A DNA stretch of 64,000 bases from Deltaproteobacteria bacterium (lineage in GTDB: Bacteria > UBA10199 > 2-02-FULL-44-16 > JAAZCA01), in assembly GCA_018645265.1 (NCBI GenBank), contig JABGOS010000088.1, positions 11,083 to 75,082 on the forward strand, written 5' to 3'. Both the position numbers and the translations under genes were made by a program. Below the pieces are notes generated by a model. That model was not told the DNA's origin. It ran no database searches and worked only from the letters and a program-made list of their open reading frames with translations. Below, one piece after another: positions 7,585-63,696 of the stretch. The stretch's first letter is position 1; each line of letters starts with the position of its first letter.

Positions 7585-7821
7585 TCAGTCCTTACTAGCC
7601 CTCTTCCTGTAATCACAAAGAATATCCTCAATCATATCCCGACCACGCAGTTTTTCCTTCTGCATCTCTTTTCTTTTCAACTCTTCTATAGGTGTAAGAT
7701 ATGGCTTATTATTGAACTTTTCAAGTCTACGCTCAAAATCGACATGCTCGTCATAGAGCATCTTAAGTGCATCATCACTTTCCATGTACTGGTTAATCAA
7801 CTCGATATCACGCTGTTCCAT
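7585..7821 (-). CDS. DUF465/YdcH-like small protein
   Basis: 78 aa coiled-coil with a pattern resembling E. coli YdcH (L..EH..L..I....K...LK..KL.LKD.I..IL). Confidence 0.5.
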   Translation of the reverse strand: MEQRDIELINQYMESDDALKMLYDEHVDFERRLEKFNNKPYLTPIEELKRKEMQKEKLRGRDMIEDILCDYRKRASKD

Positions 7822-10751: not shown

Positions 10752-12106
10752 TACATGCCTAATGTATTTTTAATCCAAGCACTTACACCCCATATGCTAT
10801 CAATATCCTTTAAGGTAATAAGAACCATAAATGACATCAAAATGATGAATCCAGTCTGATTTGCGATAGATCTGAACTTTGCACTTAGTGGCTTCCTCTG
10901 GATCGCCTCGATCCCAAGGAACATGAGATGTCCACCATCAAGCACAGGAATAGGCAGAATATTCAAGATTGAGAGCTGTAGGCTTAAAAAAGCCATAAAA
11001 TAGAGAAAGTGCCCAAGCCCTGATGCAGCAGCCTGTGCGGACACCTTTGCGATTACAATGGGGCCACCCAGCACCTTATAGGATAGCTTCAGTGTAATCA
11101 GCCTGTACAGAACTTCAAACGTAAGCTTAGCTAGTTTTATATCCTCTTTAACTCCCAGAATAATTGAGTCTACGAAACCATAACGATAGACTTTCTGAGG
11201 ACCGATATTTCTTCCATTCGTATATATACCGACCACCCATCTACCGCTCTCTGCGCTATAGGTCGGCTGAATCTTGAAATTCTCTCTTGTACCATCATCC
11301 CTACTCACCGAAATTGAAGTCTCCTCACCTCCGGATGCATTGACGCTAGCAGAGAAGTCATAGAAGTCAGCAACTGCCCTACCATCATATGACGTGATGA
11401 GGTCACCCGGTTTCAAACCCGCCTTTTCAGCCGGGCCCCCAGGCACCAGCGAACTGACCTCGGCCTTATAGCCGAGAAAGAAAACCGGTTCGACTCCCAG
11501 ATATCCACCTTTTATTTCAGGCAGTTCACCTACGACGACCTCCTTCTCAATTACCTCCCCATCCCTCATCACCTTCAGTGAGACATTCTGACCGGGACTG
11601 AGCAAAATTCTATTGATGGTGTCAGACCACAGCTTCATCTCAGCACCATCAATAGAAAGGATTTTATCGCCCTTCATGAGTCCTGCCACCTCTGCCGGTG
11701 ACTCAGCTTTGATACCAATGAGAACTGGAGGTTCATGTAGATAGACCGGTTCTGTACGACCTATCATAAAAACTATCGGCATCAGGACTAAACAGAGCAC
11801 CATGTTCATAATTGGACCGAACGCTACGACCTTCGCCCTTGCCCAAACGCTTTTCTGTGCAAACGCCTGAGGATCATCTGCTCCCTCATCGGTAGGATCC
11901 TCTCCGAGCATTCTCACATATCCACCAATCGGAAATAATGAAATACGGTAATCCGTATCACCCTTTTTGAATCCAATAAGCCTAGGACCGAATCCCAAAG
12001 AGAAAGCGTCGACGCGTATGCCGGCACGCTTTGCCATTATAAAATGCCCCAACTCATGTATGAAGATTAATATTCCAAGTGTTATTACGAAGTAGATAAA
12101 AGTCAT
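10751..12106 (-). CDS. rseP: RIP metalloprotease RseP (site-2 protease, two PDZ domains)
   Basis: HELGHF zinc motif in the first TM helix, PDZ repeats, and a C-terminal LDGG motif. Sits downstream of dxr as in many bacteria. Confidence 0.85.
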   Translation of the reverse strand: MTFIYFVITLGILIFIHELGHFIMAKRAGIRVDAFSLGFGPRLIGFKKGDTDYRISLFPIGGYVRMLGEDPTDEGADDPQAFAQKSVWARAKVVAFGPIMNMVLCLVLMPIVFMIGRTEPVYLHEPPVLIGIKAESPAEVAGLMKGDKILSIDGAEMKLWSDTINRILLSPGQNVSLKVMRDGEVIEKEVVVGELPEIKGGYLGVEPVFFLGYKAEVSSLVPGGPAEKAGLKPGDLITSYDGRAVADFYDFSASVNASGGEETSISVSRDDGTRENFKIQPTYSAESGRWVVGIYTNGRNIGPQKVYRYGFVDSIILGVKEDIKLAKLTFEVLYRLITLKLSYKVLGGPIVIAKVSAQAAASGLGHFLYFMAFLSLQLSILNILPIPVLDGGHLMFLGIEAIQRKPLSAKFRSIANQTGFIILMSFMVLITLKDIDSIWGVSAWIKNTLGM

Positions 12107-19578: not shown

Positions 19579-22500
19579 TCAAGCAGGGGTATTCCTTTTC
19601 TTCCTTGAAATTACCCTTGTAGTCATGAGCATCAGCAACGAACCTAGGAGGTAGATTATGCTGGTCGAGCTTCCTGCTGCCTGTCCAGCGATCAGTGAAC
19701 AACCTTCGCGGCTCCACGTCTTCGCGTAGTTCGCGGGGTTACCACCTACCTCGTATCCATCAGGCTGACCGTCGCCATCGGAATCGGCATTTGTCGGATC
19801 AGATTCCAACCAGTTTCCTTTACCATCCTGATCGCGCTTACCGTTACAGTTTAGATCCTCACCAAGTCCGCTTGAAGATGTGAAACCATCTGTCAATCCG
19901 TCTTGATCTGTATCCATCTCGAGTGCGTTCGTTTCGGAACCCATATCGAAGACACCATTCTGGTTCTTATCTTCGCCGAGACTTACTGTTCCATCGGACA
20001 GAGTCATCGGTCCATCAGGAATACAGTCACCATCGGTATCGATATTCGTTGCGTCCGTGCCGTATTTGAGCTCGAACCCATCGTTCAATCCATCATGATC
20101 CGTATCTGCTTCGAAAGGATCCGTCTCACTCAAGTTAGGCTCGTACGTACAGTTATGATTGATATCCTCATCACCATCCCAGACACCATCACCATCAGTA
20201 TCCGGATTCTGAGGATCTGTTCCTAGATCCTGCTCACAGAGATCCGTTAGTCCATCGCTGTCGGAGTCTTTGCCACCAGGGGCACCTTCTCCACCAACAC
20301 AGTTAGGATTGTCATTGAGTCTACAACCAGCTTCTTCTTCAGAATCTTTATTATTGTCAGCATCGGAATCGCGCATACATGGGTTGGAACCATTCCACTC
20401 AACCATGCTTCCGTTATATTCCTCAGCATCCTTCAGACCATCGTTATCGGAGTCCTTCGAACGTGGGTTCGATACCATCGGTATACCACCGATATTGTCC
20501 CAGATCTCTCCATCGATGATCTTCGTCAGGAAGGCCTGTCCTACTACCAAGTCACCAGTTACTTCGACGCCATCCTCAAGGCCATCACCATCCGTATCCT
20601 TGTTCGTAGGATCGGTATCCTGCATCATAGCATCTATACATCCCTCGGATCCCATCTGGTTCAGGTTCACGAGGTTGAAGCCAGGCTGGCCATCACGGTT
20701 CTCTTCACCATCTGGCAGGCCATCACCGTCTGTATCAGCATTACGCGGGTTCGTGTAGATCGGCATTCCATCGCCATTGACCTTCACATGAGTGTTGGTC
20801 TCAGCGAAATCATCTGCACCATCATCATCTGAATCAGCCTTCAGAGGATTCGTTTCAATCAGTGCCAATGCATCCATCGTAATGGCACCCTGAGAGTTGT
20901 CGTTACCATCGAAGCCCATGCCATCAAGATTCTTATCCTCTTGAGCATCGTACAATTCATCCTGATCGCGATCGATGAAGAATGCGAGCACCCTTCTGAT
21001 AGGATCATCAGCGTAGACACTCTTGAAAGGATCACAGCTGTAGTCGACATAAGGATTCTTGTCAGGGCTGTATTCATCGCTCGTGCTACCTGTTGCTGCA
21101 CTTTCAGGACATACATCGATGTTATCAGCAACTGTATCACCATCGGAATCAGCATCCCAGTACTTCAGCATCTGAGACTGAGGTGTCGTACCAGCAGCAT
21201 TCGTTGAATCACACTCTAATGTTGGCTGCTCTACACAATCCGGAATACCGTCACCATCGACATCACCCTGGCAGATACCCATGAGCTGCTCTCTTGTGAG
21301 ACCGTCGATCTCGAATAGATCTGGAACACCGTTCGTATCGTCATCTTTGAGCGCCACCGGCGAACCATCAAGTTCATCCCAGTATACGTACTCGGCATCG
21401 ATACCCCAGAGGATATCCTTAGGATGACATTTATTCTCCTTTTCACATTCCTTTACCTGATCTGCTATGGTAGTAGCAGTTGGTGTTGCATGGAGAGGAC
21501 ACATGTCAACGCCTCTTGGCGTCTTAGTGGTCGAATCGCAAGTAAAGGAAGCTGTCGGTACTGGGATTATGGTAAGATCAACATCTGCATTGATTGTACA
21601 TGTCTTCACACATCCGCCATCCTTGCCAGTTCCACTATTACCACCACCATCACACCAGTGATCACCATCTGAATCCGACTTCCATGGATTCATCTCGTTA
21701 TTATCTATATCAAGGTCACCGTCGAAGTTCGCACGATCACCCAAGCTTCTATTGCGACACATCAGCATCTGTAGGCGTCTCTCCGTCAACTCATCAACAA
21801 CCTCTGCGCCTGAACTGATGTCACCCCAATTACCCTGCTTCGGATCTTCATAGTACGTATCACAGTATGGATCATCCTTAGCACAGGTTACAATGTACCA
21901 CATATATCTGACACCGGTCTTACTCTCATTGCCTGAGCCCAAAGTACACTCGATTGGCTTCTGAGTAGTCTTGCTCTTAATAGGACTGCGAGTATCATAA
22001 GACCCGCCAAACTTGTAGAGCACGCCCTTCGTAACCGAGGTACCTACGCCGGTGAAGAAATGCTGGTTGCGATCTTCCTGGCCATCCCACACTCCATCAT
22101 TATCACTATCTTTATCTAGAACGTTCGGCTGGCCATCACCATCACTATGTTCAGTCATCGTCTCTTTGCCTACGCCATCTGGAATACCATCACCATCTGT
22201 ATCAGGCTCGTAGAAGTTAGTTTCCTTACCTTCATCCCACACGCAATCGCGATCGAGATCCTCATCATCATCCGGCAGACCATCGCTATCGGTATCAAAT
22301 CCCTTAGCTAGACCACCGCCCGTACCCCTGCTCGCTGCATCTGGAATTTTTCTTACGTCACGACAATGCGCGTAACCTGTCATTACATTGGAACCACCAC
22401 TACCCTTGCCACTGAGCGAACCAAATGGAGAGGAAATGTTTACATCCGGACACTGAATGTCAGGATCGTTTTCTGTAGAAGTGATATGAATGATCTTGCT

Positions 22501-23730
22501 CGCCTGACCAACGCCACCGCCGTTCATTTCAGGAACCAATATTATTCTTGAGAAATCGACCGGGACATTAATGCGGAAAGTTCCTGTGGTATTGTCCATA
22601 CCATAATCAACCGCCTTACCTACAAATGCGATCAACTCACCATCTTCCTTAGCAGTTCCACTCTGTGATTTTCCACCAATGGAGTAGACCTGAAGAGCAC
22701 TCAAACCACCGGCAGCTTCATCGGGACAGCTGTCATCGCTCAAACCTTCAACATTAGCAATGTAGCCCTCTATGATTATCGATGATGGAGTTTCATCACC
22801 TGGTTCATAGATAGCACTCTTATCAATAATTCTTACCTGGTACGGCTGCTTCGATGAAATCCAATCTTCAGAACTCTTAAGCTGTGTAATCGAAAGTCTT
22901 GCACCTGTAGAGAGATACATAAAACCATCATCATCCACTGAACTGATTGTGCCTGCGTTAGGAAGGATAAGGTTATTTGCTGACTCTCCAGGGTTATCAA
23001 AGACGATACCACTGTTTTTCGTATTTCTTAAGCTACAGTCAGAGTAAATGACGTTACCAGCAGCTGTCGGACTCATATAGAATCCATCATCTCCACCGTT
23101 AACCTCAACGTGACTGGCAGAGCTATCGTTTCCATAGAAACAAACACCCTTCATCCCATCCGGGATATTCTGAATTTCGAGGTTTTGAATCTCGACCCAG
23201 TCAACGTCCTCTTCTATTATAACCACGCAATCAAATCCCGATGGAATCTCAGCAGCATCGAGGACGGTTCTCTTTCTCTCCGTCACCTCATTGATACAAG
23301 CGCCTGCATCATCCGTCTCATAGCAGACCGTCTCCTCATCCCATGTATCACACGTACCATCGCCGTTGGAATCGTTGAGACATCCGCCGCTTATAACGAC
23401 GTGATGATCGTTCGATCCATCAGCCCTTATAACGAGAGGACCTTTCATGGCGATCCGCTCCTCCGCAATGGCAATCATCTCGCCACATGCGTAGTGCTGG
23501 CTGGTCGGCCCAAGGTTTGCGGAGTGCATTGCGACAGGCAACGTCAGCTTATTCTTATTGCCCGACTTTGCATCCCACTGACTGCTGGTGACCGTACAGC
23601 TCTTCACACTCATGTGATTATACTTGAAGCCTGCGTCGGCTCTAGATGAAATCACAATGGTGAGCGCGAAGACGACTATCGCCAGCGTTATCATGTTTCG
23701 TGATTTTACGTTATGCATGGTTTCCTCCAA
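19579..23730 (-). CDS. Giant (1383 aa) secreted calcium-binding protein with ~25 thrombospondin type-3-like Asp repeats and a C-terminal Cys-containing sorting-like tag
   Basis: Signal peptide. Reiterated DTDGDGxPD, DSDNDGxxD and DTDHDGLND units. The C-terminus reads GCSLIAGQAAGSS, then a hydrophobic helix IIYLLGSLLMLM, then RVISRKKR. Confidence 0.7.
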   Translation of the reverse strand: MEETMHNVKSRNMITLAIVVFALTIVISSRADAGFKYNHMSVKSCTVTSSQWDAKSGNKNKLTLPVAMHSANLGPTSQHYACGEMIAIAEERIAMKGPLVIRADGSNDHHVVISGGCLNDSNGDGTCDTWDEETVCYETDDAGACINEVTERKRTVLDAAEIPSGFDCVVIIEEDVDWVEIQNLEIQNIPDGMKGVCFYGNDSSASHVEVNGGDDGFYMSPTAAGNVIYSDCSLRNTKNSGIVFDNPGESANNLILPNAGTISSVDDDGFMYLSTGARLSITQLKSSEDWISSKQPYQVRIIDKSAIYEPGDETPSSIIIEGYIANVEGLSDDSCPDEAAGGLSALQVYSIGGKSQSGTAKEDGELIAFVGKAVDYGMDNTTGTFRINVPVDFSRIILVPEMNGGGVGQASKIIHITSTENDPDIQCPDVNISSPFGSLSGKGSGGSNVMTGYAHCRDVRKIPDAASRGTGGGLAKGFDTDSDGLPDDDEDLDRDCVWDEGKETNFYEPDTDGDGIPDGVGKETMTEHSDGDGQPNVLDKDSDNDGVWDGQEDRNQHFFTGVGTSVTKGVLYKFGGSYDTRSPIKSKTTQKPIECTLGSGNESKTGVRYMWYIVTCAKDDPYCDTYYEDPKQGNWGDISSGAEVVDELTERRLQMLMCRNRSLGDRANFDGDLDIDNNEMNPWKSDSDGDHWCDGGGNSGTGKDGGCVKTCTINADVDLTIIPVPTASFTCDSTTKTPRGVDMCPLHATPTATTIADQVKECEKENKCHPKDILWGIDAEYVYWDELDGSPVALKDDDTNGVPDLFEIDGLTREQLMGICQGDVDGDGIPDCVEQPTLECDSTNAAGTTPQSQMLKYWDADSDGDTVADNIDVCPESAATGSTSDEYSPDKNPYVDYSCDPFKSVYADDPIRRVLAFFIDRDQDELYDAQEDKNLDGMGFDGNDNSQGAITMDALALIETNPLKADSDDDGADDFAETNTHVKVNGDGMPIYTNPRNADTDGDGLPDGEENRDGQPGFNLVNLNQMGSEGCIDAMMQDTDPTNKDTDGDGLEDGVEVTGDLVVGQAFLTKIIDGEIWDNIGGIPMVSNPRSKDSDNDGLKDAEEYNGSMVEWNGSNPCMRDSDADNNKDSEEEAGCRLNDNPNCVGGEGAPGGKDSDSDGLTDLCEQDLGTDPQNPDTDGDGVWDGDEDINHNCTYEPNLSETDPFEADTDHDGLNDGFELKYGTDATNIDTDGDCIPDGPMTLSDGTVSLGEDKNQNGVFDMGSETNALEMDTDQDGLTDGFTSSSGLGEDLNCNGKRDQDGKGNWLESDPTNADSDGDGQPDGYEVGGNPANYAKTWSREGCSLIAGQAAGSSTSIIYLLGSLLMLMTTRVISRKKRNTPA

Positions 23731-23777: not shown

Positions 23778-24911
23778 TTAGAATACAAACTGCAGAGTGG
23801 CTCCGCCACCGATGCCACCGCTGATCTGTCCCTGATGTCCATTGACATCTGAGTCTGTCGCTTCAAGAACGCTTCTCTCTGAAAAACCTGCGATCGGTAC
23901 ATCGAAGAATACATTACCCATGAGCCTTATGGCCGAGAGAATATCCTCCACACCACCGGTGTTGATCTGGATGCCGGCTGCGAGCATGAATCCGAGAATA
24001 CCGCGTCCCTGCTGTATCGGACCTGTCGCCGTACTGGCGAGATTTGCATATTCACCACCGAGATGGAACTGAGCACCAACTACGAGTGAAACAGAATCAT
24101 GGACCGGGATTACAGGTTCGAGACCTACAAATGCGGTTCCTCTGAAGCCAGCCTTCGGTTCGCTATCTACTGCACCGTTCGATGACATGATGCGGCTGGA
24201 GATAGGAATTCCTAGCAATGCACCGTATGAGAGGAAGAGACCTGAATGCTGCTGTGGCTTTCCCCACATCATAAGGCGACGTCTTCCCTCAAGGCTGATT
24301 TGAACCATGTGGCTAACTGCTCCACCGTCTCCACCCAAATCGCCCATATAGGACATATCACTGAAATCTCCATCGGTACCCTGGACCCATCCGCTACCGC
24401 TGTATCCATAACCAAGGCCCAAAACAAACTGATGCTCATCTACCTTGTCGGCATCTTTCGGTGTCGCTTTGCATGATTTGGAAGCAGCATCAAAAGTTTC
24501 ATCGCTATCACAAGGCTTACATACGCCCGCATCCACTTTCTTGCCTTCAAGAGCACACTCATCAGCAGTCTTCGGCTTCGGTGCGGCCATATCTTTTTCG
24601 ACATCGGCACGCTTCGGCAATGATGGAGCACTTGCCATACCATAAAAGCCAGACATTCCCTTGAACATCGGCAATGGAAGCTTGCCTGTGTGCATCTGGA
24701 AATAATCCTCACACTTAGCTGCGATAGGGGTGCCCTTCGTATGCCCTATGGTGCCGAGAAATTCGGACCAATCCTTCCCTGTGGCATCACCAGCATCAAA
24801 CATCTGTTGATCTGTATCTACCATTGAGCATCTAAATGTGATGCCATCCTTGAAATCCTGACACGCTTTGGTTGTACAACTCTTTAGTGTTCCGTCGCCT
24901 GCTGAAAACAT
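23778..24911 (-). CDS. Cys-rich protein with OMP-like beta-barrel C-terminal half (ends ...GGATLQFVF); no detectable signal peptide
   Basis: Strong RBS (AAGGAGG 7 nt before the ATG). The C-terminal 200 aa have alternating hydrophobic strands and a terminal Phe. Sits immediately upstream of the giant gene on the same strand with a 47-nt gap. Confidence 0.45.
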   Translation of the reverse strand: MFSAGDGTLKSCTTKACQDFKDGITFRCSMVDTDQQMFDAGDATGKDWSEFLGTIGHTKGTPIAAKCEDYFQMHTGKLPLPMFKGMSGFYGMASAPSLPKRADVEKDMAAPKPKTADECALEGKKVDAGVCKPCDSDETFDAASKSCKATPKDADKVDEHQFVLGLGYGYSGSGWVQGTDGDFSDMSYMGDLGGDGGAVSHMVQISLEGRRRLMMWGKPQQHSGLFLSYGALLGIPISSRIMSSNGAVDSEPKAGFRGTAFVGLEPVIPVHDSVSLVVGAQFHLGGEYANLASTATGPIQQGRGILGFMLAAGIQINTGGVEDILSAIRLMGNVFFDVPIAGFSERSVLEATDSDVNGHQGQISGGIGGGATLQFVF

Positions 24912-25266
24912 AATTACCTCCTTGAAATCTTTTTCCCCCGAAAAAGAATGAAGTGACTATTGTCCATTATCCTCCATCTTCATTATCGAACTTAGACGTA
25001 AAAAGTTGCTGGTTTTTTTATCGGTTTTTTTTGGAACTTCAGAAGCGCCCAAATAGGATAAAAAGGACGCTATATCATTAATCATTACATATACTTACAA
25101 AATATGCATTATTTCGGAGCTTTGCATATTTTTTTTGAAAATATCTATTTTTTTCTCCATGAAGAAATTTTTTATTAATTTTACCGAACACATTTTTTGA
25201 TATATTTAGCATTATATAAACGCTCTATACCCAGCCCATCTTCGTCATTTCTCCCAATTTGTTGCT

Positions 25267-25289
25267 AAAAAAGTGTCCGACACTTTTTT
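25267..25289. repeat. REP-like palindromic element copy 1 (AAAAAAGTGTCCGACACTTTTTT)
   Basis: Exact core GTGTCCGACAC flanked by an A-run and a T-run. Lies upstream of the RAYT gene. Confidence 0.75.
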
Positions 25290-25426
25290 GCTGCACATTG
25301 ACCACTTTTCATACACCTACAAGATTCATATCATTGATATATATGGGTTTTTTATGGAATAAATATTGCTCTCTCACATCTCAAATATCAATCGTAACAC
25401 CTATCCAGGAGGTTATTTTGACCAGA

Positions 25427-26029
25427 ATGCCACTTATCCATATCCCGGGGGGTCTCTACTCTGTGGTCAGCAAATGCAATAACAATGAATTTTTGTTCGA
25501 CTCTAAGGATAAATTCGAGCTGTATCTCAGGCATTTAATGGAGTGTAAGAAAGTGCAAGGCTTCAAGATCTACGATATCGTATGCATGTCGAACCATGTT
25601 CATGAACTGTATGAAGTGCCTGAAAAAGTAACTATCGCTAAAATTCTGCAGCGAGTTAAGGGTAGTTTTGCCATAAAATTCAACGTTATTTACAAGAGAA
25701 GCGGTCATTTCTGGAAGAACAAACCATTTTATAGGGTGGTTGAAGATGAGGAGCACGCCATCGCATGCATCAACTATTTCCACGAAAACCCCACAAGGGC
25801 AGGTATGGTGCTGCATCCATCCCTATGGCCCTTCTCCGGATATAACTTCCATGTACATGGTGATCGAACAGGCCTGATAGGAAAGCTACTTGACCCACTA
25901 CCCGGCTACAGCGAATTCTCGCCATTTGATGAGATGAAGATAGATGTTGAAAAGGTCCTAGGCTCTAAAAAACATAAATTTTTAGGCAGCTCTATCTTTC
26001 AGGAATCTATGAAAACAAAGTACAAATGA
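25427..26029 (+). CDS. IS200/IS605-family HUH/Y1 transposase, REP-associated tyrosine transposase (RAYT)-like
   Basis: HuH motif (MSNHVHEL) and a Tyr motif followed by NP.RAG (YFHENPTRAGMV). AGGAGG at 25407-12. The track ORF 25259.. extends 5' across the REP copy and an AT-rich tract, which is unlikely to be coding. TTG at 25418 is an alternative start. Confidence 0.65.
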   Translation: MPLIHIPGGLYSVVSKCNNNEFLFDSKDKFELYLRHLMECKKVQGFKIYDIVCMSNHVHELYEVPEKVTIAKILQRVKGSFAIKFNVIYKRSGHFWKNKPFYRVVEDEEHAIACINYFHENPTRAGMVLHPSLWPFSGYNFHVHGDRTGLIGKLLDPLPGYSEFSPFDEMKIDVEKVLGSKKHKFLGSSIFQESMKTKYK

Positions 26030-26039
26030 TAGATGACAT

Positions 26040-26061
26040 AAAAAAGTGTCGGACACCTTTT
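26040..26061. repeat. REP-like element copy 2, inverted orientation (core GTGTCGGACAC)
   Basis: Reverse-complement orientation of the core. Immediately 3' of the RAYT gene. Confidence 0.75.
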
Positions 26062-26074
26062 GTACAATTCTCGT

Positions 26075-26094
26075 AAAAAGTGTCCGACACCTTA
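26075..26094. repeat. REP-like element copy 3 (core GTGTCCGACACC); forms an inverted doublet (REPIN-like) with copy 2
   Basis: 18 nt from copy 2 and in opposite orientation. Confidence 0.75.
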
Positions 26095-26098
26095 TTCA

Positions 26099-27277
26099 TT
26101 ATAATAGTTCGATCACCATTGCTGTTGCTTCGCCGCCACCATTACACAGCGTTGCCAAACCCAACTTCTCGCCACGATTCTTCATAGCATGAACGAGTGT
26201 CACTAATATTCTTGCACCAGAGGCGCCGATCGGATGACCGACAGCCACTGCACCACCGTTCACATTCACCTTATCAGGATTCAGTTCCAGTTCCTTGATA
26301 GCTGCGAGCGTCACGGCCGAGAACGCCTCATTAATTTCAAAGAGATTAATATCCCCTGCCTTAAGCCCAGCCTTTTCCAAAGCACGTTTCGATGCACCTA
26401 TAGGCGCCGTCGTAAACCACTCAGGCTCTTGTGAAAAACCAGCATGCGAACGTACGTACGCAAGAGGAGTTAACCCTTCCTTCTTTGCTCTACTCTCAGA
26501 CATAACGACGAGCGCCGCAGCACCATCAGAAATTGAACTGGCGTTTGCGGCAGTAATCGTACCATCCTTCTTGAAGGGAGCCTTCAACGTTGGTATTTTA
26601 TCAAACTTCACGCGTCCCGGCTCCTCATCCTTATCGAAGATGATCGGCGCACCCTTCCTCTGTGGTATTTCAACTGTTGTGATTTCATTTTTAAATGCAC
26701 CATTCTCATTTGCAGCCTGCGCGCGCTTATACGTAGCAATCGCATATTCATCCTGAATCTCTCGCATAAATCCATATTTCTCAGCACAAAGTTCCGCACA
26801 TGCACCCATATGCTGATTTGAGTAAATGTCCCAGAGACCATCAAAGACCATTCCATCAACGACCTTTCCATCACCCATCCTGTAACCATTTCTAGCTTTT
26901 GGAAGATAATAGGGTGCATTCGACATCGACTCCATACCACCCGCGATCACAATTTCCACGTCACCGGCACGAATCATCTGGTCCGCAAGCATGACACTCT
27001 GCAAACCGGAGGAACACACTTTGTTGACAGTAAGCACGCCAACTTCTTTTGGTAGGCCGGCACCAAGTGATGCTTGTCGCGCAGGTGACTGACCAAGCCC
27101 TGCCGGAAGAACGCATCCCATAATCACCTGATCAACCTTCGAACCATCGAGACCCGTCTTCTTGAGTGCATCCTTGATGACGATAGAACCAAGCTCAGTA
27201 GATTTCATTCCGGACAAAGCTCCCTGAAAGCTACCGAGAGGAGTTCTTGTTGCTGACACTATGACTGTGCGTTCCAT
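26099..27277 (-). CDS. Acetyl-CoA C-acetyltransferase (thiolase II)
   Basis: Cys-acyl site VNKVCSSGLQ. C-terminal NGGGEATAMVIE thiolase signatures. Confidence 0.85.
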   Translation of the reverse strand: MERTVIVSATRTPLGSFQGALSGMKSTELGSIVIKDALKKTGLDGSKVDQVIMGCVLPAGLGQSPARQASLGAGLPKEVGVLTVNKVCSSGLQSVMLADQMIRAGDVEIVIAGGMESMSNAPYYLPKARNGYRMGDGKVVDGMVFDGLWDIYSNQHMGACAELCAEKYGFMREIQDEYAIATYKRAQAANENGAFKNEITTVEIPQRKGAPIIFDKDEEPGRVKFDKIPTLKAPFKKDGTITAANASSISDGAAALVVMSESRAKKEGLTPLAYVRSHAGFSQEPEWFTTAPIGASKRALEKAGLKAGDINLFEINEAFSAVTLAAIKELELNPDKVNVNGGAVAVGHPIGASGARILVTLVHAMKNRGEKLGLATLCNGGGEATAMVIELL

Positions 27278-31331: not shown

Positions 31332-31407
31332 GGGCCGCTAGCTCAGTCGGCAGAGCAACGCCCTTTTAAGGCGTGGGTCGAAGGTTCGAACCCTTCGCGG
31401 CTCACCA
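31332..31407 (+). tRNA. tRNA-Lys (anticodon TTT), CCA encoded
   Basis: Cloverleaf: acceptor GGGCCGC/GCGGCTC, anticodon loop CTTTTAA, T-loop GGTTCGAAC. 76 nt. Confidence 0.9.
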
Positions 31408-31475: not shown

Positions 31476-31547
31476 GACCCCATCGTCTAGCGGTTAGGAC
31501 ACCGCCCTTTCACGGCGGCAGCACGGGTTCGATCCCCGTTGGGGTCG
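31476..31547 (+). tRNA. tRNA-Glu (anticodon TTC), no encoded CCA
   Basis: Acceptor GACCCCA/TGGGGTC, anticodon loop CTTTCAC, T-loop GGTTCGATC. Confidence 0.85.
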
Positions 31548-32247: not shown

Positions 32248-32277
32248 ACCCGGGTCAGTCATGATCCGGGTTTTTTT
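32248..32277 (+). terminator. Rho-independent terminator (CCCGGG stem + T7)
   Basis: ACCCGGG...TCCGGGT followed by TTTTTTT, immediately 3' of the 31689..32219 gene. Confidence 0.7.
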
Positions 32278-32283
32278 ATTTCG

Positions 32284-32302
32284 AAAAAGTGTCGGACACT
32301 TT
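32284..32302. repeat. REP-like element copy 4 (AAAAAGTGTCGGACACTTT)
   Basis: Same core as the RAYT-flanking copies. Follows the terminator. Confidence 0.7.
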
Positions 32303-32452
32303 AATGTGCCTATATATCATATAGATAAGAAATTTTGCGCTATTTAAAAGCTATATCAGAGAAAAGAAACTCACGCAAAAATAGCGCAACAAAGTTATCC
32401 TCTGGCCGATAAGAACCTGATTCATCATATAATGATATATTAGGAGGTTTAA

Positions 32453-37476: not shown

Positions 37477-37493
37477 AAGCGTCCGACGCTTCT
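37477..37493. repeat. Degenerate REP-like copy with compensatory stem changes (AAAGCGTCCGACGCTTC)
   Basis: T>C and A>G substitutions preserve the palindrome (GCGTC/GACGC). Confidence 0.5.
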
Positions 37494-42900: not shown

Positions 42901-43056
42901 AGCACCTCCTGAGTGAACGGCAGCCTTCCTTAGTAAAATGTCCTGGAAAAATCAAATAGATAACTTACATCCGATACAAACCAGGCAAGGTCATTCTCAT
43001 TCAGGCGTTCAATATGGTGTCGAGTCGAACGAAGTCAATGCATCATTTCAGAATGA

Positions 43057-43078
43057 TTAAGTGTCCGACACCTTTAAA
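43057..43078. repeat. REP-like element copy 5 (core GTGTCCGACACC)
   Basis: Lies in the hslV-xerC intergenic region. Confidence 0.7.
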
Positions 43079-43111
43079 GTTAGAATTATTAGCTCATTTT
43101 AAATAAAACAA

Positions 43112-43147
43112 CCCCCGAGGTGTGCTTTACAGCCTTAACCCCGGGGG
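43112..43147 (-). terminator. Stem-loop (AACCCCCG/CGGGGGTT, 8 bp) with T-run on minus strand; probable xerC terminator
   Basis: Sits between two REP copies. The minus-strand read gives the hairpin followed by GTTTTATTT. Confidence 0.45.
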
Positions 43148-43157
43148 TTGCAAATAA

Positions 43158-43179
43158 CTAAAAGTGTCCGACACTTTCC
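43158..43179. repeat. REP-like element copy 6 (AAAAGTGTCCGACACTTTCC)
   Basis: 4 nt past the xerC stop. Confidence 0.7.
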
Positions 43180-43182
43180 TCG

Positions 43183-44088
43183 TTATGCCTTAGGATGAGA
43201 CTTATCGTATGTATCCATAAGTCCCTCAACACTCACATGTGTGTATTTCTGCGTCGTTGAAAGGCTGGCATGCCCGAGAAGCTCTTGAATACCCCTCATA
43301 TCCGCACCAGAACCCAAAAGATGTGTCGCAAATGTATGTCTAAGAATGTGAGGAGTAACCTTCTTCTGAAGCCCACAGACTTTTATGTATTTATTGAGCA
43401 TTCTCTCTATTGAGCGCGCTGTCAACCTGCCGCCACGCCTATTCACAAACAGCGCTTCCTGCTTCGCGCCATCCGGCGTCAGCACAGATCTAAACTCGAT
43501 ATACGCACCTATCGACCTACAGGCCTTCTCCCCAACAGGAACTATCCGTTCTTTCCGCCCTTTACCTAATACCCTCACCGTCCTCTCATCGAGGTCTACA
43601 TTGTCGAGATCGAGCTCCACGAGCTCACCGACACGGATCCCGGAAGCGTATAGAAGTTCTATTATAGCCTTATCTCTGGAGCCCAGGGCTTCATCGCCAC
43701 ATGGGGCATCAAGAAGAGAAAAGACCTCGTCAACTGTAAGAAATTTTGGAATTTTCTTCGGCACCTTAGGAGTTGCAACCTCTTTCGCCGGGTTATAATT
43801 GACTACACCCTTTCTCAAGCAATATTGAAAAAAGGTACGCAATGATGCCAATTTTCTAGCCATCGAAGATGGAGAGTGATCCTTGACCATATGGCCCAGA
43901 TAATCTCTCACCACATTGGCATCAACCTTAGTCAGATAAGATGCTTCCTTATCCATCACCCCTGGAAAACGCACACCCATGAAGGTGAAAAACTGGGTTA
44001 AATCAACCATATAGTTCTTGTGAGTGTGCGGCGACACGACTTTTTCGTGTTGTAGATAGGTCTCGAATTTTCTAATAAGTTGTCTCAT
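43183..44088 (-). CDS. xerC: Tyrosine recombinase XerC/XerD
   Basis: R..HxxR..Y catalytic set (HILRHTFATHLL and Y in TQKYTHV). Lies upstream of hslVU, as in the Bacillus codV-clpQ-clpY arrangement. Confidence 0.85.
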   Translation of the reverse strand: MRQLIRKFETYLQHEKVVSPHTHKNYMVDLTQFFTFMGVRFPGVMDKEASYLTKVDANVVRDYLGHMVKDHSPSSMARKLASLRTFFQYCLRKGVVNYNPAKEVATPKVPKKIPKFLTVDEVFSLLDAPCGDEALGSRDKAIIELLYASGIRVGELVELDLDNVDLDERTVRVLGKGRKERIVPVGEKACRSIGAYIEFRSVLTPDGAKQEALFVNRRGGRLTARSIERMLNKYIKVCGLQKKVTPHILRHTFATHLLGSGADMRGIQELLGHASLSTTQKYTHVSVEGLMDTYDKSHPKA

Positions 44089-53193: not shown

Positions 53194-53266
53194 TGGGCCT
53201 GGCAGGAATCGAACCTGCGGCCCTCTGCTTAGGAGGCAGATGCTCTATCCCCTGAGCTACAAGCCC
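53194..53266 (-). tRNA. tRNA-Arg (anticodon CCT)
   Basis: The reverse complement folds as acceptor GGGCTTG/CAGGCCC, anticodon loop CTCCTAA, T-loop GGTTCGATTCC. No encoded CCA. Confidence 0.85.
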
Positions 53267-63658: not shown

Positions 63659-63671
63659 ACTATTCTAACAT

Positions 63672-63696
63672 AAAAAGGTGTCCGACACCTTTTTAG
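63672..63696. repeat. REP-like element copy 7 (AAAAAGGTGTCCGACACCTTTTTAG)
   Basis: The longest near-perfect palindrome of the family. Lies between convergent genes. Confidence 0.7.

Follow-up and report, generated by a model that had tools for sequence, protein, structure and literature searches.

A 64,000-nucleotide stretch of deltaproteobacterial DNA (positions 11,083 to 75,082 of contig JABGOS010000088.1, assembly GCA_018645265.1; hereafter the window) contains a locus that is very likely a REPtron, namely an apparently single-copy REP-associated tyrosine transposase (RAYT or TnpA-REP, a class 2 enzyme of the Y1 HUH type) flanked by cognate hairpins of the repetitive extragenic palindrome (REP) type. 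The pairing of this gene with its palindromes is kept across the whole clade of proteins to which the transposase belongs. RAYTs and REPs are the main example of a domesticated transposase maintaining a population of short mobile hairpins in bacterial genomes, and knowledge of them comes mostly from Enterobacteria and Pseudomonas, where the REPs bear a GTAG foot. The present system is of a known kind; it occurs here in an uncultured deltaproteobacterial lineage, with an apparently undescribed, foot-less type of REP and a discrete clade of RAYTs that appears to stand next to subclass 2.1. The gene and the palindromes of the window are as follows, the palindromes being given without a strand:

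25418..26029, + strand: RAYT (TnpA-REP-like Y1 HUH) gene, 203 amino acids from TTG 25418
25407..25412, + strand: AGGAGG, ribosome-binding site as read from the sequence, 5 nt 5' of TTG 25418
25267..25289: upstream REP, AAAAAAGTGTCCGACACTTTTTT = AAAAAAGTGTC-C-GACACTTTTTT, a perfect 23-nt palindrome with central C, 128 nt before the TTG
26040..26061: downstream REP 1, AAAAAAGTGTCGGACACCTTTT = AAAAAAGTGTC-G-GACAC(C)TTTT, with central G and one bulged C, starting 11 nt after the stop codon
26075..26094: downstream REP 2, AAAAAGTGTCCGACACCTTA = AAAAAGTGTC-C-GACAC(C)TTA, with central C, ending 5 nt before the stop codon of a convergent thiolase gene
26040..26094: REPIN-like doublet (REPIN, a REP doublet forming a hairpin), in which both downstream REPs pair into one long hairpin
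32284..32302: dispersed REP with central G, immediately following a terminator-like hairpin that separates it from a + strand gene ending 75 nt upstream
37477..37491: dispersed REP variant AAGCGTC-C-GACGCTT (AAGCGTCCGACGCTT), with a compensatory change of T:A to C:G at stem position 4
43057..43075: dispersed REP with central C, left member of a pair with 103-nt spacing
43161..43177: dispersed REP with central C, 14 nt beyond a stop codon
63671..63695: dispersed REP, perfect palindrome (T)AAAAAGGTGTC-C-GACACCTTTTT(A), between convergent genes

Palindromes of a common form in the window

A preliminary description of this DNA, made from its letters alone, had placed three palindromes beside the transposase gene, and all three are found at those positions. 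Their general form is (A)nGTGTC-S-GACAC(T)n, with a length of about 19-23 nt. The window has seven copies of the 11-mer GTGTCSGACAC, a number that none of 100 shuffles of the window reaches and that compares with an expectation of 0.35. Together with the compensatory variant at 37477..37491 there are eight units, all of them intergenic and distributed over six separate regions (P about 9e-7), in a window that is about 90% coding by a crude gene set. Three further GTCSGAC heptamers, which lack extended palindromic flanks, all lie within genes. An independent sample (L137, 99.95% identical) has the unit of 63671..63695 in the corresponding place. The variant at 37477-37491 carries the GCGTC...GACGC stem typical of two of the homologous lineages described below (L004 and L124), in place of the GTGTC...GACAC of its own genome, and the same variant flanks the RAYT in L004; the unit would be a compensatory double mutant or else belong to a second REP subfamily. 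As for the surroundings of the other dispersed units, the pair 43057-43075 and 43161-43177 brackets a GC-rich terminator-like hairpin, AACCCCCGAGG...CCCCGGGGGTT (window 43045-43190), and the unit at 32294 comes directly after another such GC-rich hairpin, cccgggtcagtcatgatccgggttttttt (window 32250-32305).

When folded as single-stranded DNA and compared with 200 shuffles, the perfect units form stems of 10-11 bp with a 3-nt tip. The upstream REP gives a stem of 10 bp, or 12 pairs if the outer G-C pairs are counted, closed by a CCG triloop, at -8.9 kcal/mol (z -5.1), and the REP at 63671..63695 reaches -9.2 kcal/mol (z -5.8); in neither case is any of the 200 shuffles as good. The downstream doublet (26035-26101) folds as one hairpin of -14.1 kcal/mol (z -4.5), a value that no shuffle out of 200 attains; its two units taken singly give -2.9 and -1.7.

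The individual units are near-symmetric, with the central base as their main asymmetry. By that base, G in one and C in the other, the two downstream units stand in opposite orientation, as had been proposed; both, however, bear the extra C on their 3' side, which speaks against it. Since the central base and the extra-C bulge disagree, orientation in the window is ambiguous from sequence alone. The comparison with REPINs stands for the doublet at 26040-26094, with its one long hairpin, but does not clearly hold for the other units: the members of the pair 43066/43169 have the same central base and lie 103 nt apart, and four of the eight units are singlets, so that the term is only partly apt in the window. 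Orientation is clearer among the homologous loci. In 12 of 15 two-sided loci the closest units on either side of the gene differ in their central base, one being the complement of the other (p = 0.018), and in two loci (L007 and L127) a stem mismatch unambiguously identifies the upstream unit as the reverse complement of the downstream one.

Conservation of the gene-palindrome pairing across homologous loci

The comparison comprises 25 loci, that is, the window and 24 further ones whose proteins are 53-65% identical to the window protein, from genomes of 37-62% G+C. The neighbouring genes are unrelated among these loci. Palindromes centred on GTC-S-GAC lie no more than 250 nt from the gene ends in the window and in 23 of the 24 further loci, and in the remaining one (L126) the flanking palindromes have the same outer stem with another tip, TAAGTGC-CGT-GCACTTA. 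Flanking palindromes are therefore present in 25 of 25 loci, 24 with the GTC-S-GAC apex and one with a different apex. This exceptional locus (units at 7678, 9953, 10619 and 10676) combines the outer stem TAAGTG...CACTTA with the tip GTGC-CGT-GCAC, which reads ACG in the inverted copy, and represents a natural apex-swap variant with one dispersed copy 2.3 kb away.

The association is also strong in quantitative terms. In 24 loci, the RAYT flanks, 11 kb in all, contain 70 GTCSGAC heptamers, and the other 202 kb contain 15, or 6.3 per kb against 0.074 per kb, an 85-fold difference, and the heptamers outside the flanks are themselves mostly genuine dispersed palindromes. Around the common apex, the outer stems are specific to lineages: 1) AAAAGTGTC in the window; 2) TAAGTGTC in L001 and L116; 3) AAAAGGCGTC in L004 and L124; 4) TAGG(T/C/G)GTC in L007 and L122; 5) TTGGTGTC in L121 and L134. 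Dispersed copies bear the stem variant of their own lineage (L004, L134 and L126).

Covariation within the stems was measured on 65 distinct flanking units taken without filtering, a set filtered for pairing being circular for this purpose, and compared with 500 shuffles. Paired cells amount to 78% (70.6% in the shuffles) and the covariation score to 0.244 (0.143 in the shuffles), neither value being reached by any of the 500 shuffles; as the units of one locus are related, these numbers are supportive rather than formal probabilities. The position fifth from the centre is G:C in 61 of the 65 units, positions 4, 6 and 8 swap among Watson-Crick pairs, and sliding the 3' partner makes the pairing collapse. 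The 25 loci, the 85-fold enrichment and the covarying stems, together with the gene-free intergenic copies, uphold the earlier proposal that the palindromes on both sides of the transposase form a RAYT plus REP unit.

The flanking units often occur as arrays of 2-6. Downstream of the RAYT in L128, L131, L132, L133 and L136, cores 13 nt apart overlap into larger perfect palindromes or arrays (for example CAAAAGTGTCCGACACTAGTGTCGGACACTTTTG). In L116, a two-unit block, G-type and then C-type, 35 nt apart and with identical flanks, stands at 992-1027 and again at 1836-1871, direct rather than inverted across the gene.

These comparisons bear on an explanation in which the palindromes would be regulatory or terminator elements of the host, or sites for a double-strand DNA-binding protein, and would adjoin the RAYT gene through autoregulation or by chance. 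Their form, an A-run, a stem and a T-run, would suit such a role, as would their positions: seven of the eight window units, all but the upstream one, are found either between convergent genes or 14-117 nt past a stop codon, and, as noted above, two of them bracket and another follows terminator-like hairpins. Nevertheless, the occurrence of units at both gene ends in every locus, and the lineage-specific stems common to flanks and dispersed copies, argue against it. The stems are moreover too GC-poor for the terminator scan, no Rfam family matches them, and the same core flanks a RAYT of only 24% identity in an actinomycete metagenome-assembled genome (MAG) of 68% G+C. We therefore hold this explanation to be very improbable. 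A promoter and terminator scan around the RAYT gene gave nothing beyond shuffle expectation, and did not call the REPs terminators; in the Rfam scan of the window, tRNAs alone reached the gathering threshold, no family was found for the REPs, and the sub-threshold matches of the doublet were chance hairpin matches.

The transposase as a class 2 RAYT

Residues of the window protein are numbered here from ATG 25427. The product of the open reading frame (ORF) contains HVHEL and YFHENPTRAGMV, and its key residues are those of the HUH motif (H57-V-H59), the catalytic tyrosine Y117 in YFHENP, a WPFSGY motif in the tail and a C-terminal (K/R)F(L/I)GSxxF. In an alignment of 27 homologs H57, H59, Y117, H119, N121 and WP.SGY are invariant, and the family consensus of the tyrosine motif is Y[FY]HxNP, in which P122 is nearly invariant. 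The combination NHVH ... YFHENP is the class 2 RAYT signature: Y---NP marks class 2 (TnpA-REP), and Y---Q marks IS200, subclass 1.1 (Quentin et al. 2018, PMC6006769). Pfam recognizes the protein as Y1_Tnp ('Transposase IS200 like', E 3.9e-10).

Among solved structures the sole significant match by sequence is that of E. coli TnpA-REP in complex with a REP hairpin (PDB: 4ER8; HMMER, E 4.7e-4), with the HUH motif and Y115 aligned; the one other structure listed (PDB: 2x1w) is noise, at E 0.68. An AlphaFold (AF2) model built on the 27 homologs has a mean predicted local distance difference test score (pLDDT) of 89.8 and a predicted template-modelling score (pTM) of 0.87. Foldseek places 4ER8 at the top of its matches to this model (E 6.5e-8, 166 columns, TM 0.72 on the target), followed by the IS200, IS608 and ISDra2 transposases at E of about 3e-5 over about 113 columns. 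The preliminary reading of the protein as a RAYT-like HUH/Y1 transposase is borne out by Y---NP, by the match to 4ER8 in both sequence and fold, and by scores of 77.5 bits on the NCBIfam RAYT model against 24 on the IS200/IS605 model; judged by its motifs and its modelled fold, the protein is of the RAYT type and not of the IS200 type.

The Pfam Y1_Tnp match and the presence of hairpins on both sides of the gene could suggest a canonical IS200/IS605 insertion sequence, with the flanking palindromes as its subterminal hairpins. However, the tyrosine motif is Y---NP and not Y---Q (PMC6006769), and the 24 bits on the NCBIfam IS200/IS605 model fall far below its cutoff of 55. The protein is also about 50 amino acids longer than IS200 TnpA (about 150 amino acids) and has a RAYT-type tail; neither a tnpB gene nor a second copy of the transposase occurs in the window; and the hairpins, instead of sharing one strand, are inverted, and they also occur without the gene. 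This alternative is effectively refuted.

A discrete clade, apparently next to subclass 2.1

In an exhaustive profile search of a superfamily of about 23,900 representatives, the clade of the window protein is discrete: one full-length cluster at 50% identity scores 349 bits and the next one 140 bits. The nearest relatives outside the clade include proteins of 320 amino acids with a C-terminal helix-turn-helix (HTH) domain of the Bac_DnaA_C type and the motifs GH(L/V)FQGRY and YIHLNPVRAG, which are hallmarks of subclass 2.1. An HTH is found in the outgroup proteins P0098, P0130 and P0138; in the 27 family members, no HTH model matches at E <= 1. Subclass 2.1 (Bertels Group 1, TIRYT) is characterized by a distal C-terminal HTH (Bac_DnaA_C, HTH_23 or HTH_28) and by FQ and YIHLNP motifs (PMC6006769, PMC3733652), and has been reported to lack REPs and to have only terminal inverted repeats (TIRs) with GGGGWSAS (PMC6006769). 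With 2.1-like nearest relatives, yet without the HTH, the clade looks like a short neighbour of this subclass. The FW[KR]N motif of the family matches no 'W' motif of any subclass in Table 1 of Quentin et al. (PMC6006769).

This position brings in a further alternative, an autonomous element of the TIRtron type, in which the gene and its inverted flanks would move together, as has been proposed for subclass 2.1 (TIRYT), leaving the scattered palindromes as remnants of solo ends. It draws on the Bac_DnaA_C HTH and the FQ and YIHLNP motifs of the nearest outside relatives, on the gene of L007, which is bracketed by a near-perfect inverted block of about 62 nt, and on the unrelated neighbourhoods in which the gene stands in every lineage examined. 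On the other hand, the window has a single Y1 gene, and P0008 has a constant context on more than 20 contigs of different samples; the dispersed units are single 20-nt hairpins, or doublets without an enclosed gene; and the family itself has no HTH domain. A TIRtron thus seems improbable, though less so than a set of host regulatory elements. As for carriage, plasmids yielded no close relative of the window protein (best 32% identity) and phages none that was close.

Several observations weigh against the reading of the locus as a REPtron. 1) The nearest relatives belong to subclass 2.1, which has been reported to be REP-free (PMC6006769). 2) On the NCBIfam model REP_Tyr_transpos the window protein scores 77.3-77.5 bits, just under the cutoff of 80; P0014, the representative of the family at 50% clustering, reaches 89.8 bits on this model, above the cutoff. 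3) The density of dispersed copies is modest, with five non-flanking units in the window, all intergenic, and 0-2 per 20 kb in the homolog loci. 4) The upstream unit of the window has a central C, against G upstream in most homologs, and its orientation is ambiguous. 5) No position outside the stem, including a 5' GT[AG]G, is conserved in the eight window units or in the 65 flanking units, so that the conserved 5' tetranucleotide guide looked for on the basis of the preliminary description is absent from both sets. Against these points stands the conserved pairing described above, and a REPtron remains our strongly favoured reading.

Recognition of the hairpin and a possible mechanism

Canonical REPs (those of subclasses 2.2, 2.4, 2.5, 2.7 and 2.8) carry a 5' GT[AG]G at the foot of the hairpin, and E. 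coli TnpA-REP reads its GTAG with W94, Q95, E100, H101 and R104 (PMC6006769). In the HMMER alignment to 4ER8 these contacts correspond to R91, S92, K97, N98 and R103 of the window protein, four of the five being replaced; at the level of the family, R, S/T, K/R and N stand in place of W94, Q95, E100 and H101. With the GT[AG]G foot missing, the equivalents of the residues that read it replaced and the apex conserved, recognition probably proceeds, to judge from these sequence comparisons, via the conserved apex G[T/C]GTC-S-GAC[A/G]C rather than via a foot. In subclass 2.6 and class 3, too, atypical structures without a foot have already been described.

The RAYT of this locus probably spreads the flanking hairpins through the genome, to judge from E. 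coli TnpA-REP (Ton-Hoang 2012; Messing 2012; Corneloup 2021) and from the IS608 paradigm. On single-stranded DNA, such as the lagging-strand template, each unit would fold into a hairpin of 10-11 bp with a 3-nt tip, which the enzyme would bind. Cleavage beside the hairpin would then employ a metal bound to H57 and H59 as well as Tyr117, with a 5'-phosphotyrosine intermediate, and would be followed by rejoining of the strands, the predicted outcome being that REP units or doublets are excised, copied or inserted. In a secondary role, the hairpins may also serve as 3'-end RNA or terminator elements.

A more far-reaching proposal combines three elements: 1) the family as a distinct, unclassified subclass of RAYTs, with a 2.1-like core lacking the HTH, the FW[KR]N motif and a separation of about 200 bits from its nearest relatives; 2) REPs that are read at the apex; and 3) a 'GTC-S-GAC' superfamily of REPs extending across phyla. 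We put this forward as tentative and, taken as a whole, rather doubtful; if true, it would amount to a second mode of REP recognition. In any case, the window locus and its 24 relatives constitute a natural experiment, with enzyme and apex conserved, stems covarying and no guide, beside a subclass supposed to be REP-free, and they give a handle on the question of which part of a REP a RAYT reads.

The same core in other phyla

A scan of genome contigs with AAGTGTCSGACACYTT gave at least 108 stretches, about 1,100 chance matches being expected in 596 Gb, and the source MAG is not among the matches listed. About one quarter of the matches listed are MAGs of Saprospiraceae (Bacteroidota), which carry the GTGTCSGACAC core in textbook inverted doublets, consisting of AGGTGTCGGACACTT, a spacer and AAGTGTCCGACACCT, the exact reverse complement of the first. 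The spacing of the doublets is about 67-71 nt in L018, L034, L075, L080, L082, L084, L089, L100 and L114, and about 18-19 nt in L015, L032, L092, L097, L103 and L112. Given these inverted doublets, a second phylum has apparently amplified the REP core as REPINs; the 8-kb Saprospiraceae stretches themselves contain no RAYT gene.

A contig of an 'uncultured Actinomycetes bacterium' MAG (CAWDUL010000006.1, 68% G+C) contains a distant RAYT-like ORF (L109:5880-6740) between arrays of the core GTGTCGGACAC. The arrays are tandem with a 25-nt period, two units on one side and five on the other. The product of the ORF is 24% identical to the window protein and scores E 6.6e-13 with the family hidden Markov model and 45 bits on the NCBIfam RAYT model.

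Gene start, annotation and neighbouring genes

The ORF in which the transposase lies can be extended to 256 amino acids from 25259, and it then crosses the upstream REP; a start there is unsupported, and the long ORF is an annotation artefact. In the alignment, the homologs begin MxRLPLIHIP, and the window protein read from the in-frame TTG 25418 begins MTRMPLIHIP. As this TTG also follows AGGAGG by 5 nt, it is the best start; the start used by NCBI, ATG 25427 (200 amino acids), lies 14 nt after AGGAGG. The suspicion already voiced that 25259-25426 is not translated is supported by the same homolog N-termini and ribosome-binding site.

In the databases, NCBI lists the protein as 'transposase' (MBT3181832.1), from a Deltaproteobacteria MAG, and JGI has a longer call of the same protein as 'REP element-mobilizing transposase RayT'. 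Gene calls of the database homologs P0033, P0041, P0012 and P0021 cross REPs, giving artefactual 'CVGH' N-termini or 'KVSDT' C-termini. For genome annotation, the gene start should accordingly be moved to 25418, and several database calls in the RAYT clade read through REPs.

Beside the RAYT lies a divergent gene (23778-24911, - strand, 377 amino acids) without a Pfam match, which adjoins an ORF of 1,383 amino acids (19579-23730, - strand). The three tRNA genes of the window that reach the Rfam gathering threshold are at 31332-31404 (+ strand), 31476-31547 (+ strand) and 53194-53266 (- strand).

Comparison with known RAYT and REP systems

The exact palindrome is absent from the searchable REP tables, and full-text searches for its strings gave unrelated mentions, none in REP papers. 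The features shared with subclass 2.1, which is reported to be prevalent in delta-proteobacteria, include the NHVH HuH motif, Y(I/F)HxNPVRAG and a linker RFLG(S/D)EEF that aligns with RFIGSxxF of the family. Unlike that subclass, with its HTH and FQ and W[EQ] motifs, the window family is HTH-free, has FW[KR]N and possesses clear dispersed REP-like palindromes. The half-site GGACAC resembles the TIRYT consensus GGGG[AT][CG]A[CG] for the TIR, which we note as a lead only.

The CGTC/TGTC-tagged REPs (Di Nocera et al. 2013), reportedly without a dedicated transposase, have a [C/T]GTC tetranucleotide in common with the present units. Their tag is an unpaired foot, followed by an 8-9-bp stem, a 4-5-nt loop and a CCA tail, whereas here [C/T]GTC is part of the stem, beside the tip. 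We consider the resemblance superficial, and membership in that group is rejected.

Like the REPINs described from Pseudomonas (Group 3, subclass 2.5; Bertels and Rainey 2011), the inverted doublet at 26040-26094 folds as one hairpin; in contrast to them, the window REPs are shorter, have no GTAG foot and are half singlets.

The best structural match is to the system of E. coli (TnpA-REP, YafM; PDB: 4ER8; subclass 2.2, Bertels Group 2). The two enzymes share the HUH motif, the single tyrosine in Y---NP and a C-terminal extension with W..S(S/G); their identity in the structural alignment is 18%, and the present family has an extra tail of about 60 amino acids ending in RF(I/L)GSxxF. A 5' GTAG foot and a long, bulged stem characterize the REPs of E. 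coli, whereas those of the window are foot-less, near-perfect palindromes with an invariant apex. As in the E. coli REPtron, the gene is apparently single-copy and flanked by inverted hairpins, and the repeats also occur in intergenic regions, often as inverted doublets.

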